From a virus (Duplodnaviria; Heunggongvirae; Uroviricota; Caudoviricetes), in the IMG/VR virus record IMGVR_UViG_2740892422_000007: a stretch of 6,800 nt of DNA, one strand, 5' to 3'. Below are positions 1 through 6,800 of the stretch, piece after piece. Below the pieces are notes generated by a model. That model worked only from the letters and a program-made list of their open reading frames with translations. It had not been told where the DNA came from and did not search any database. The position numbers and the translations under genes were made by a program. Position 1 is the first letter of the stretch; every line of letters begins with the position of its first letter.

Positions 1-94
1 AGCTGAACAGGAGGGACAGCTGATAGAAACAGAAGCCACTGGAGCACCTCAAAAACACCATCATACACTAAATCAGTAAGTTGGCAGCATCACC
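1..94 (-). mobile_element. IS1 terminal fragment (left-end inverted repeat plus first 13 codons of insA); element continues leftward out of the window
   Basis: Bases 1-94 are the exact reverse complement of 6707-6800 (94/94). The motif GGTGATGCTGCCAACTTACTGAT matches the IS1 left terminus as I recall it. The minus strand of 1-39 reads GTG-initiated VASVSISCPSCSA, the InsA N-terminus. Identity stops exactly at 94/95. Confidence 0.85.
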
Positions 95-656
95 GCCATT
101 CAATATCCGGTGCAGTTGATGTATCAACACGGTTCAGCAACACCCGATACTTTTTCCAGGCTTCCAGCAACAAGGTTTCTTCCTCCGTTGCGATCTCCAG
201 ATCCACAGCATCCTGAAGCGGCGCTATATGCTCACTGGCTATCTGCATCAGGCTGTTTTTTGTTTCTTCCGCCTCCCGGATCCGGAACAGTTTTTCTGCT
301 TCCGTATCCTTCACCCAGGCTGTGCCGTTCCACTTCTGATATTCCCCTCCCGGCGATAACCAGGTAACATTTTCCGGTAACGGACCGAGTTCAGAAATAA
401 ATAACGCGTCGCCGGAAGCCACGTCATAAACCGTTTTACCCCGATGATCTTCAACGAGATGCCACGATGCCTCATCACTGTTGAAAACAGCCACGAAGCC
501 TGCCGGAATATCTGGCGGTGCAATATCGGTACTGTTTGCTGGCAGACCTGTATGAGGCGGAATATATGCGTCACCTTCACCAATAAATTCATTAGTTCCG
601 GCCAGCAGATTATAAATTTTTATGGTCCGTGGTTGTTCACTCATTCTGAATGCCAT
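90..656 (-). CDS. tfa: Tail fiber assembly protein Tfa (lambda-like), 188 aa, 3' end truncated by IS1
   Basis: ORF-track translation [48 protein letters not shown] matches lambdoid Tfa proteins from memory. The start overlaps the stf stop (TAATG on the minus strand at 654-658). The last native codon is W (96-98); the final R codon (93-95) and TGA stop (90-92) are supplied by the IS1 end. Confidence 0.88.
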
Positions 657-896
657 TACGCAAGCCTCACAATATAGTTAAATGCGATGTTTTTGACGGT
701 GTTTTCCGCGTTACCAGCAGCGTTAACGGTGATGGTATGTCCATGTGAACCAATCGCAACGGAGTGCGTATGAGCACCAATACCGACAGTATGTGCGTGT
801 GCACCTGCGCTTGCAGCAGTACCCGATACAGAGTGCGTATGAGCGCCTGCAGAAGAAGTGTTAACACTGTATTTAGAATAATCAGGTGATCCACTT
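656..896 (-). pseudogene. stf: Side tail fiber Stf, C-terminal ~80 codons only; 5' portion deleted
   Basis: The C-terminal 80 residues of track ORF 656..1132 read [81 protein letters not shown], with the repeated G(A/S)H(T/A)H motif and a terminal [11 protein letters not shown] typical of lambda Stf. The upstream 78 residues of that ORF are an out-of-frame read across the terminase fragment. No start codon or RBS exists for this fragment. Confidence 0.8.
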
Positions 897-1799
897 CCAG
901 ATCCCGGTCTTTTCGCAGATATAACGGGCATCAGTAAAGTCCAGCTCCTGCTGACGGATGACGCAGGCATTATGCTCACAGAGATAAAACACGCTGGAGG
1001 GATCATCCGGCATCCATTTGAGGCCAAACGGCGTCTCTTTGTCGCCAAATTTAAGGTACTGCTCCTTCCCGCAGTGCGGGCAGGCAACATGAAAACGCAT
1101 AAAATGCGGGGATTCACTGGCTGCACGCTCAATCTGGCAGGTGCCTCTCACTTTGGGCGTGGAGCCACGGATGGATTTTGGCCAGACAGAGCCTTCAATA
1201 CGCTTATCGCCCAGGAACGTCGGAGAGCCTTCCTGTTCAATATCCTCATCAAAGGCAGCAAGTTCATCATAACCCGCCACATCCACTGACTTTTCACGGT
1301 AGTTTTTTGCCGCTTTACCGCCCAGGCACCAGAAGCCACGCCCATTGGTGAAACGCTTCATGGTGAGCGTGTTATCCCGGTGCTTTTTGCCATACCACGG
1401 GGCCAGCGCCAGCAGCGAAGGAATATCACGGATGGTCGGCTCAACGTGGGTTTTCATAAAGTTCTCGGCATCACCATCCGTCGGCAACCAGATAAGTGTG
1501 TTGCGCTGCTTATGCTCTATGAAGTAGGCATAAACACCCAACAGCATTTTGGAATAACCAACACGGGCAGACTTCACCACATTCACCTCGCGGATGTAGT
1601 CGCTGCCCATCGCATTCATGATGGCCCGCTGAAAGGGCAGTGTTTCCCAGCGCCCTTCCTGGTATGCGGATTCTTTCGGGAGATAGTAATTGGCATCCGC
1701 CCATTCAACGGCGGTCTGTGGCTCCGGCCTGAACAGTGAGCGAAGCCCGGCGCGGACAAAATGCCGCAGCCTGTTAACCTGACTGTTCGATATATTCAC
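882..1799 (-). pseudogene. A: Terminase large subunit gpA, N-terminal 301 codons fused to 4 junk codons (KWIT) and a stop; nuclease and portal-binding C-terminal domains absent
   Basis: Translation MNISNSQVNRLRHFVRAGLRSLFRPEPQTAVEWADANYYLPKESAYQEGRWETLPFQRAIMNAMGSDYIREVNVVKSARVGYSKML is near-identical to lambda gpA from memory. Similarity ends after ...YICEKTGIW (codon 301, about base 897). Full-length gpA is about 641 aa. The 5' end overlaps nu1 by 26 nt, as in lambda. Confidence 0.88.
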
Positions 1800-4200: not shown

Positions 4201-4407
4201 CTTCATTTTCACTTTTTTAAATCCAACGACAGACGGCTGGCATTTAAGTATTGTGAAATATTATCAAATGTAATCATCATTGATTTACAAAAGATACATT
4301 TTGCCCCGAAAGGATTCATGTCAGAAACATCAAAAGATGATGTTCTATACTGGGAACCATGACAACACGGGCATCTAAAGTGAATATGGTTTGTAATATT
4401 GTCTACC

Positions 4408-4620
4408 TCAAAGCGCCACTACATGAACAGCGGCAGGACCTTTAGGTCCGTTCTCAATACCAAATTCAACTTCCTGATTCTCAGTTAATGTTTTGAAATC
4501 GTTGCTCTGAATTGCTGAGAAATGGACAAACACATCTTTGCTGCCATCTTTCGGCGTGATGAAACCAAAACCTTTTTCAGGGTTAAACCATTTCACTAAA
4601 CCAGTCATTTTGTTAGACAT
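4408..4620 (-). CDS. cspI: CspA-family cold shock protein, 70 aa, CspI-like
   Basis: Translation [70 protein letters not shown] carries the RNP1-like KGFGFI and RNP2-like VFVHF motifs. The [14 protein letters not shown] variant and the lysis-gene neighbourhood match Qin CspI as I recall it. Start context AAAGGTAATAATT-ATG resembles the cspA leader. Confidence 0.85.
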
Positions 4621-4735
4621 AATTATTACCTTTTGAAGAAATTAGCCCTTGGGCAGAATGGTCCGAAAAAAAATATCAGAGAGAAAAACCAACAAGGAAA
4701 TCTCAAGAGGTACAAATAATAAAATTATAACAATG
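4621..4735 (-). promoter_or_regulatory. Candidate cspI promoter (extended -10) and roughly 100-nt AT-rich 5' leader
   Basis: Minus-strand TGTTATAAT (plus 4724-4732) is a TGn-TATAAT extended -10. A long leader is characteristic of cspA-family genes. No experimental support. Confidence 0.4.
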
Positions 4736-4982
4736 ACTGCTTCAGATAAATTTGTAACAAACCAGAACACCATTAACGCATGATTAACCACCCATAGCAA
4801 GGATTACTTTTGTAAAGAAAAACACAGCAATGAAAGAATAGCTTTATTTATTAATAAAACGTGTCATTCTGATTAAGACCTTTTATCTTACCCTTAAGAT
4901 TTCAGGAATTTTGGCTCATGGAAGAGTCCTTTTTATTTAAATTTTACATTCCGCGATGTAAATGTTCCGATTTAATATTACC

Positions 4983-6006
<1,024 letters not shown>

Positions 6007-6010
<4 letters not shown>

Positions 6011-6318
6011 AGATATTTATGATGAGGACGCTCGTGCTTATTGGCAGGATTTTCAATCTTAAAGGAGTACTGATGCTGCAGATAAGACTCAACTTTTTCT
6101 GACAATTTTTCTGCTACTTCCAGGAAGACTTGCCGGACGCTCCTTCTGGCTGCTGCCTCATAAAACTCCAGCGCAGCTCCTTCAACACGGTCCATGGCGA
6201 CATCCAGGTCAAAAATTTCACCGTCAAAGCGTTCTTTGTCCTGTAAGGCTACAGTTACCGTAACTTTATTCTCAAAATTACGGACTCCTTTCACAACCAG
6301 TTCATAGTCTTGAGTCAT
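6007..6318 (-). CDS. DUF1327-like prophage protein (YdfR-like), 103 aa, function unknown
   Basis: Track ORF with strong RBS GAGGAGAG upstream of the ATG at 6316-6318. Its stop overlaps the endolysin start (ATGA at 6007-6010). Length and position between holin and endolysin match ydfR of Qin from memory; acidic, no transmembrane segment. Confidence 0.7.
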
Positions 6319-6322
6319 TGGA

Positions 6323-6538
6323 TTACTCTCCTCTCGCAGCCTTACGCCTGTCTTCTTTAATCTTGAAATAAAGATTTGTCAGATACGTCAGCAGGCCAAA
6401 AACCAGGCTACCCAGCACACCGATTGCAGCCCACTGTGACGGAGTTACTTTATCGAGTAACTGCAATGCCCAGAAACCAGCATTACCCGCCGATGTGCCA
6501 TAGGCAACACCTGTTGTTAACTTATCCATTGATTTCAT
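6323..6538 (-). CDS. S: Class II pinholin (S21-like) with dual-start motif, 71 aa (68 aa from the second start)
   Basis: Real start is [71 protein letters not shown]. Two in-frame ATGs at 6536-6538 and 6527-6529 are separated by K-S, RBS GGGGTGAGG lies upstream, and there are two transmembrane segments with a basic C-terminus. The track ORF's 25-residue N-terminal extension is a run-on, not coding. Confidence 0.85.
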
Positions 6539-6706
6539 ATCCTCACCCCGATGTACACGGATGGTGCAATATGTTTGAAAAGATCGGAGTCTACGGGGTA
6601 GTTTTGACAGCACACGTTGTTCTCAACGGCGCTAAAAAAACATACACATTAAAAATGTGGGTAATTATTTTGAAAGAAAGTCATATATAAAATAATAATA
6701 CGAGAA

Positions 6707-6800
6707 GGTGATGCTGCCAACTTACTGATTTAGTGTATGATGGTGTTTTTGAGGTGCTCCAGTGGCTTCTGTTTCTATCAGCTGTCCCTCCTGTTCAGCT
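6707..6800 (+). mobile_element. IS1 terminal fragment (left-end inverted repeat plus first 13 codons of insA); element continues rightward out of the window
   Basis: GGTGATGCTGCCAACTTACTGAT... begins at 6707. The 94 bp are the exact reverse complement of bases 1-94. GTG-initiated VASVSISCPSCSA reads on the plus strand from 6762. Confidence 0.85.

Follow-up and report, generated by a model that had tools for sequence, protein, structure and literature searches.

The lysis region of the Qin prophage of Escherichia coli K-12 carries the genes essQ-ydfR-rrrQ-rzpQ/rzoQ in this order, with cspB, cspF and the Q gene quuQ (ydfT) upstream. The encoded proteins can be compared with the cassette of phage 21, which comprises the pinholin S21, the signal-arrest-release (SAR) endolysin R21 and Rz/Rz1. 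A second defective lambdoid prophage of K-12, DLP12, offers an example of an insertion sequence between the Q gene and the holin gene: an IS5 copy lies in nmpC, between quuD and essD, and the lysis cassette there is still intact. IS family, prophage and insertion site all differ from those of the case described here.

The other relevant precedent comes from IS1 itself. Papers that cite Prentki et al. (1986) document an outward-facing -35 element of IS1 and hybrid promoters of afaA in ST131, pgaA in strain 55989, acrEF and bla, with a rise of the afaA transcript of roughly 7-log2 (PMC8764528, PMC4287979, PMC9330008). Which IS1 end and which hexamer served in these promoters is not stated in the accessible texts.

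The stretch of DNA analysed here (the window, 6,800 bp) corresponds exactly, on the opposite strand, to the whole of an NCBI draft contig of E. coli, JRGC01000019.1 (GCA_000754855.1). It shares with K-12 Qin the lysis genes, their order and the predicted essQ promoter hexamers, which are identical. In contrast to K-12, the native sequence gives way to an IS1 end at position -168 relative to essQ, the tfa end is cut by a second, inverted IS1, and IS1 has disrupted the Q gene, too, in sister genomes. The likeness to the IS1 hybrid promoters is one of sequence: a -35-like hexamer that points outward from the terminal repeat stands 17 bp from a hexamer in the target that resembles a -10 element. 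What lies downstream, however, is a potentially lethal lysis cassette and not a resistance or adhesin gene. We consider it probable that a recent IS1 copy uncouples this cassette from Q and its late promoter pR' but neither accounts for its harmlessness nor leaves it promoterless.

Lysis genes and prophage context

The lysis set is complete, as a sequence-only reading of the window had stated: holin, DUF1327 protein, lysozyme, DUF2514 Rz-like protein and an embedded Rz1 frame are all present (Table 1). EssQ matched PF04971 with 116.7 bits (cut-off 26). Its reading frame, opening with an ATG at 6538 on the minus strand, is nested in a 96-aa GTG frame (6323-6613), and its N-terminus, MKSMDK, contains the dual-start motif MKSM (Met1/Met4) that is also found in phage 21. 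EssQ and the other lysis proteins are identical in relatives in which the region is uninterrupted. RrrQ is homologous to R21 over almost its full length including the N-terminal region, residues 9-174 aligning with the phage 21 lysozyme (3HDE) and with RrrD (4ZPU); the hydrophobic, Gly/Ala-rich N-terminus suggests a putative SAR type. RzpQ matched DUF2514 with 133.8 bits (Pfam). Embedded in its gene, in the +1 frame and within 5033-5305, is an Rz1-like lipoprotein frame with the lipobox LTSC and a Pro-rich mature part. An NCBIfam search of the lysis proteins gave no informative names. Judged by its predicted products the cassette belongs with that of phage 21 (pinholin, putative SAR endolysin, spanins), to which a DUF1327 gene has been added. 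Phage 21 differs in that it has no ydfR between holin and endolysin genes, whereas the present cassette belongs to a defective prophage and has no adjacent Q/pR' on the contig.

Table 1. Features of the 6,800-bp window, with positions counted from its first base
Feature	Position	Strand	Description
Second IS1 left end	1-94	-	Inverted; supplies the last codon and stop of the frame 90-656 (…DIEWR, stop)
tfa'	90-656	-	Tail-fibre-assembly gene, interrupted by the left IS1 close to its 3' end
Tail-fibre remnant and terminase large subunit	882-1799		N-terminal 305 codons of the terminase large subunit
nohA/Nu1	1774-2319
ynfO, ydfO, gnsB, ynfN, cspI			Further prophage genes
rzpQ	4983-5480	-	Rz-like inner-membrane spanin, DUF2514, 165 aa; PF10721, E = 7.7e-39
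rrrQ	5477-6010	-	Lysozyme-type endolysin, 177 aa; PF00959 (Phage_lysozyme)
ydfR	6007-6318	-	DUF1327, 103 aa, between holin and endolysin genes; PF07041, E = 1.1e-53
essQ	6323-6538	-	Phage-21-type class II holin, 71 aa; PF04971, E = 4.4e-34
Leader	6539-6706	-	Native essQ-ynfU intergenic sequence, 168 bp, 100% identical to uninterrupted relatives
Native promoter-like site	6664-6691	-	TTTATA-16-AATAAT, intact, 15 bp from the IS1 end, toward essQ
Candidate hybrid promoter	6692-6720	-	IS1/native sigma-70 site, TTGGCA-17-TATTAT, toward essQ
IS1 left end	6707-6800	+	IRL and start of insA; stops at the contig end
pIRL	6714-6741	rightwards	IS1's own promoter, CTGCCA-16-TATGAT, pointing away from the lysis genes

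As a whole, the window corresponds to the late part of a defective lambdoid prophage of the Qin type, in which the minus strand encodes the lysis genes. Several of its features deserve mention in their own right. The terminase large-subunit gene fuses, after its N-terminal 305 codons, into the tail-fibre remnant (656-1799). This part lacks about 2.1 kb that are present in the relative L001 (6804-8959 there), which points to an additional internal deletion in this lineage. Just upstream of nohA/Nu1, in the region 2344-2400, there is a perfect 15-nt inverted repeat (AGAAAGGAAACGACA / TGTCGTTTCCTTTCT), and a lambda-type cohesive-end sequence, AGGTCGCCGCCC, at about 2489-2500 indicates that the cos region has been kept in the remnant. 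Two Rfam families were matched on the minus strand: the cspA thermoregulator at 4381-4766 (112.8 bits, gathering score 78), covering the cspI 5' leader and part of the coding region, and IS009 at 115-313 over its full length (221.5 bits), within the tfa coding sequence. The truncated Tfa protein, of 188 aa, is a marker for a small lineage of E. coli represented by 16 contigs.

Both ends of the window consist of IS1. Positions 1-94 and 6707-6800 form perfect inverted arms, each of them an IS1 left end (IRL) that breaks off 94 bases into the element. Since the contig stops inside IS1 on either side, as is usual at repeats in short-read assemblies, the DNA beyond IS1 is unassembled rather than absent. 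The arms, identical over 94 nt, resemble the k-1 overlap of a de Bruijn assembler. As the inward-facing ends are both IRL, the two flanking IS1 copies must be inverted with respect to each other, and the chromosomal orientation of the 6.6-kb segment between them cannot be deduced from the contig or from short reads. Recombination between the inverted copies could flip this segment.

The IS1 junction and the position of Q

The sequence-only reading had placed about 170 bp of native DNA between the holin start and IS1, and the count holds: 168 bp separate the essQ start codon from the left inverted repeat, GGTGATGCTGCCAACTTACTGAT, which begins at 6707. The junction sits 51 bp from the start of ynfU, within an essQ-ynfU spacer of 219 bp. 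This IS1 copy is known from 94 nt only, all of which (94/94) agree with the IRL ends of complete 768-bp copies in sister and related genomes (L002-L004). The products of the complete copies match Zn_ribbon_InsA, HTH_Tnp_IS1 and DDE_Tnp_IS1 (Pfam), and all compared copies are identical in sequence.

On the native side the 60 bp adjoining IS1 are 80% A+T, and 137 bases at the junction show 100% identity to K-12 records. The lysis region (4983-6706) is 100% identical to one sister and one outgroup, with zero private substitutions; a compensating mutation was sought in the lysis genes and none was found, their sequence being that of the relatives. With no private substitution in the window, the essQ-side insertion appears to be very recent. 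So little time would have passed since then that intact genes carry no information on selection.

The essQ-side junction was absent from the complete E. coli genomes searched. Two apparent full-length matches among these turned out to be IS1 copies inserted in ynfU. Nor did genome-representative and metagenome collections contain an exact match to the pattern of the junction or of its reciprocal with the right repeat (IRR). The arrangement represents a single event seen in two samples.

A promoter-like sequence, TTGAAA-18-AATAAT (10/12), lies on the plus strand at 6670-6699 and is presumably the promoter of ynfU. Instead of ynfU it now faces the left end of IS1 and insA, and external transcription entering IS1 from this site could alter the expression of transposase or InsA.

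On the tfa side the complete IS1 of a sister genome (L004) is flanked by a 9-bp target duplication, TTGAATGGC, as left by a simple insertion; the corresponding duplication expected of a simple essQ-side insertion would be ATACGAGAA. It might be supposed instead that the junction was made by an IS1-mediated rearrangement, either a duplicative inversion starting from the IS1 in tfa or from the one in quuQ, or a flip between inverted copies. In that case one of the two segments, either that of the lysis genes or that of pR', would have been turned around with respect to its partner, and the connection between them would truly be lost. The window's IS1 copies are indeed inverted, whereas the two flanking copies in L004 are direct repeats; all compared copies are identical; and intramolecular replicative deletions and inversions by IS1 are documented, according to a paper citing Turlan and Chandler 1995 (PMC9330008). 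On the other hand, a plain insertion in the opposite orientation yields the same contig, the sequence being known as far as the 94-nt arms. The two origins are thus indistinguishable from the contig, and we regard a rearrangement as possible though the less expected course.

In the uninterrupted relatives L001 and L002, the region upstream of essQ contains ynfU (divergent), cspB, cspF, ynfS and then ydfT/quuQ. In L001 the stop codon of quuQ, a PF03589 gene, lies 1,903 bp upstream of the essQ ATG. About 30 bp past quuQ there is a pR'-like site, TTTGCA-18-TAAAAT, and beyond it a GC-rich hairpin and its T run (together ~30-130 bp past quuQ). On the strength of consensus matches, site and hairpin would represent the usual pR'/tR' layout. 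A second hairpin resembling an intrinsic terminator lies between cspB and ynfU in the relatives.

Within the 6,800 bp of the window, in agreement with the sequence-only reading, neither a Q gene nor a late promoter of the pR' type was found; the edge of the window is, however, an assembly boundary. The reading had gone further and proposed that IS1 cuts the cassette off from its late promoter, that the genes are consequently silent and that an intact lysis set is tolerated for this reason. The first step is borne out, as the IS1 end physically separates the cassette from the position that Q and pR' occupy in the relatives. The lysis genes are intact, as the proposal requires, and IS1's own promoter faces away from essQ. 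A full-length IS1 contains no complete outward promoter near IRL at a threshold of 9/12, and a weak terminator-like hairpin occurs on its antisense strand about 130 nt inside IRL. Unmodified polymerase traversing the element would probably fail to reach essQ. A complete outward promoter has been claimed for one IS1 end in one paper (PMC4287979).

Separation is not the same as silencing. RNA polymerase modified by Q or N passes terminators and overcomes IS polarity, and a simple 768-bp insertion alone would not block it. A literature search on IS1 polarity and antitermination yielded nothing useful.

Further objections concern tolerance. Of 5,426 complete E. coli genomes, 1,591 have the stretch from quuQ to rzpQ without interruption, in the sense that at least 80% of it was found in a single place; among the matches listed, an annotated antiterminator gene stands beside the cassette, the proteins of which are identical to those of the window. 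Because so many genomes carry the cassette beside Q with no IS1 between them, its tolerance needs no IS1. The essQ-cspB spacer of K-12 has moreover been used for landing pads (Kuhlman and Cox 2010; Urtecho et al.). These are artificial and their position was chosen, in contrast to the present insertion, but as far as the accessible parts of the reports go, kilobase inserts are tolerated and multi-kilobase landing pads are routine there, which counts against an insertion as the explanation for the tolerance of the cassette.

The history of the lineage points the same way. Over 6,612 bp, the contigs that share the IS1 junction in tfa have 1-3 mismatches to the window. In every one of these sister contigs that reaches quuQ (L003-L006) the Q gene is already cut by a different IS1. 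In L003 and L004 this element follows codon 5 of quuQ; 215 bp are deleted, no target duplication is present and a 3' fragment of 171-172 codons is left. Most draft contigs of the lineage end at this Q-side IS1, which occupies about 921-1692 in L003 and L004 and 1-106 in L006. The quuQ-side and tfa-side copies of L004 are the direct repeats mentioned above and enclose about 9.6 kb in the manner of a composite transposon. The window's arrangement is thus a derived minority form within a lineage that had very probably already lost Q, and we infer from the sister genomes that quuQ is most likely truncated in the window's own genome too. A homology search with the truncated Q protein of the lineage did not bring up this exact protein among the representatives.

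Sites reading toward essQ

The sequence-only reading knew of no outward transcription from the IS1 left end and, seeing no late promoter, took the 168 bp upstream of essQ to leave the lysis genes probably silent. Neither point is supported. A promoter-like site in the leader, TTTATA-16-AATAAT, is intact, and genomic SELEX with RpoD assigns the same hexamers to essQ-rrrQ-ydfP in the essQ-cspB spacer of K-12, where an H-NS binding mark is also recorded (PMC3946193). The same source lists the pIRL hexamers for insAB-1. The SELEX hexamers are the computed best match within a broad, low-resolution peak, and our own promoter calls are matches to a consensus. Such matches numbered 9 in the entire 6,800 bp against 13.1 expected in shuffled sequences, which is no enrichment. 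The leader contains no terminator-like site that we could find, and its predicted RNA fold is indistinguishable from that of shuffled sequences (z = -1.37).

The candidate hybrid promoter is the top sigma-70 match of the entire window, with 10 of 12 consensus positions (5/6 in each hexamer). Its -35 hexamer, TTGGCA (6720-6715), lies inside IRL, 8 nt from the IS1 tip, and its -10 hexamer, TATTAT (6697-6692), in native DNA. In the uninterrupted allele the -35 position is occupied by AAATAT (0/6), so it is the insertion that creates the site. By sequence it has what would be expected of an IS1 hybrid promoter, namely an outward -35 in the terminal repeat and a flanking -10 at 16-18 bp. With a native promoter-like site kept, a better candidate gained and an outward -35 of IS1 on record in the literature, the step from separation to silence appears unsupported. 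Together with the uninterrupted genomes, the prior loss of Q in the sisters and the youth of the insertion, this makes it unlikely in our view that silencing by IS1 is what renders the lysis genes tolerable.

It could be argued, conversely, that the junction was selected for activating the cassette, giving meaningful Q-independent expression of holin, endolysin and spanin in some role such as autolysis, the release of vesicles or toxins, or the formation of biofilm matrix. H-NS silencing would possibly be disrupted in the process, as in the activation of bgl by IS1 or IS5. The spacing of 17 bp is optimal, the spacer is rich in A+T with H-NS binding reported, and strong IS1 hybrid promoters have precedent. 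A junction of this quality would arise at 0.4% of random positions with exactly 17 bp between the hexamers and at 1.3% if 16-18 bp are allowed. IS1, however, favours A+T-rich targets, in which -10-like hexamers abound, and within the A+T-rich spacer 9 of the 219 positions would give an equivalent junction. The geometry is therefore uncommon but is not strong evidence of selection. The single event seen in two samples speaks against selection as well, and strong constitutive expression of a pinholin and SAR endolysin would presumably be lethal.

The setting of the -35 hexamer also argues against high activity. As reverse complement it overlaps the -35 hexamer (CTGCCA) of the divergent pIRL, and it lies in a repeat bound by InsA, which binds both IRL and IRR; InsA and RNA polymerase bound at pIRL should therefore compete for the site, and InsA on IRL should repress it. 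In the Pc promoter variants of integrons a -35 of TTGGCA gave 40 units against 1240 for TTGACA, about 30-fold less. In our view selection of the junction for cassette activation is very improbable.

Expected transcription of the lysis genes and significance

The reading that we prefer, uncoupling by a recent IS1 that is not the cause of harmlessness, can be set out as follows. In a small lineage of E. coli with a defective prophage of the Qin type, a very recent IS1 copy would have come to lie with its IRL between essQ and ynfU, parting essQ-ydfR-rrrQ-rzpQ/Rz1 from ynfU-cspB-cspF and from Q with its pR'/tR'-like site about 1.9 kb upstream. The cassette would normally be quiet, a defective prophage presumably not switching on Q-dependent late transcription, and in this lineage Q was most likely destroyed earlier by another IS1. 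If Q-dependent transcription is off anyway and Q has most likely been lost already, it would follow that IS1 is not what keeps the cassette harmless.

The weak native essQ promoter-like site would be retained in a spacer that binds H-NS in K-12, and the outward -35 of IS1, placed 17 bp from the native TATTAT, would add a hybrid promoter toward essQ. As this -35 is shared with the divergent IS1 promoter in the InsA-binding repeat, InsA should damp the hybrid promoter, and H-NS would probably do so too. With moderate confidence, then, low, sub-lethal and Q-independent transcription may be expected rather than strict silence; the intact holin/endolysin set is a weak, circumstantial pointer to low expression at most. 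Sequence cannot decide whether the cassette is expressed, and the junction is best regarded as a testable promoter candidate.

A more far-reaching suggestion would be autolysis or vesicle release under the control of IS1, the junction promoter being governed by InsA and the upstream H-NS-bound DNA having been lost, so that the lysis genes would become independent of Q. We think this quite improbable.

Otherwise the insertion amounts to an ordinary IS1 polymorphism of very recent date within a small lineage of E. coli. Everything described here falls within known kinds and provides a new instance of a known phenomenon, the general interest of which is low unless the junction promoter drives the lysis genes. 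Two points nevertheless reach beyond this locus. In draft assemblies, genes at an IS-bounded contig edge may seem to be cut off although the missing context merely reflects the limit of the assembly, and the quiescence of lysis genes in cryptic prophages would appear to have a broader cause than one insertion. If the junction promoter is active, the locus would represent a natural IS switch of a lethal phage lysis module, by which it would pass from the control of Q to the control of IS1.
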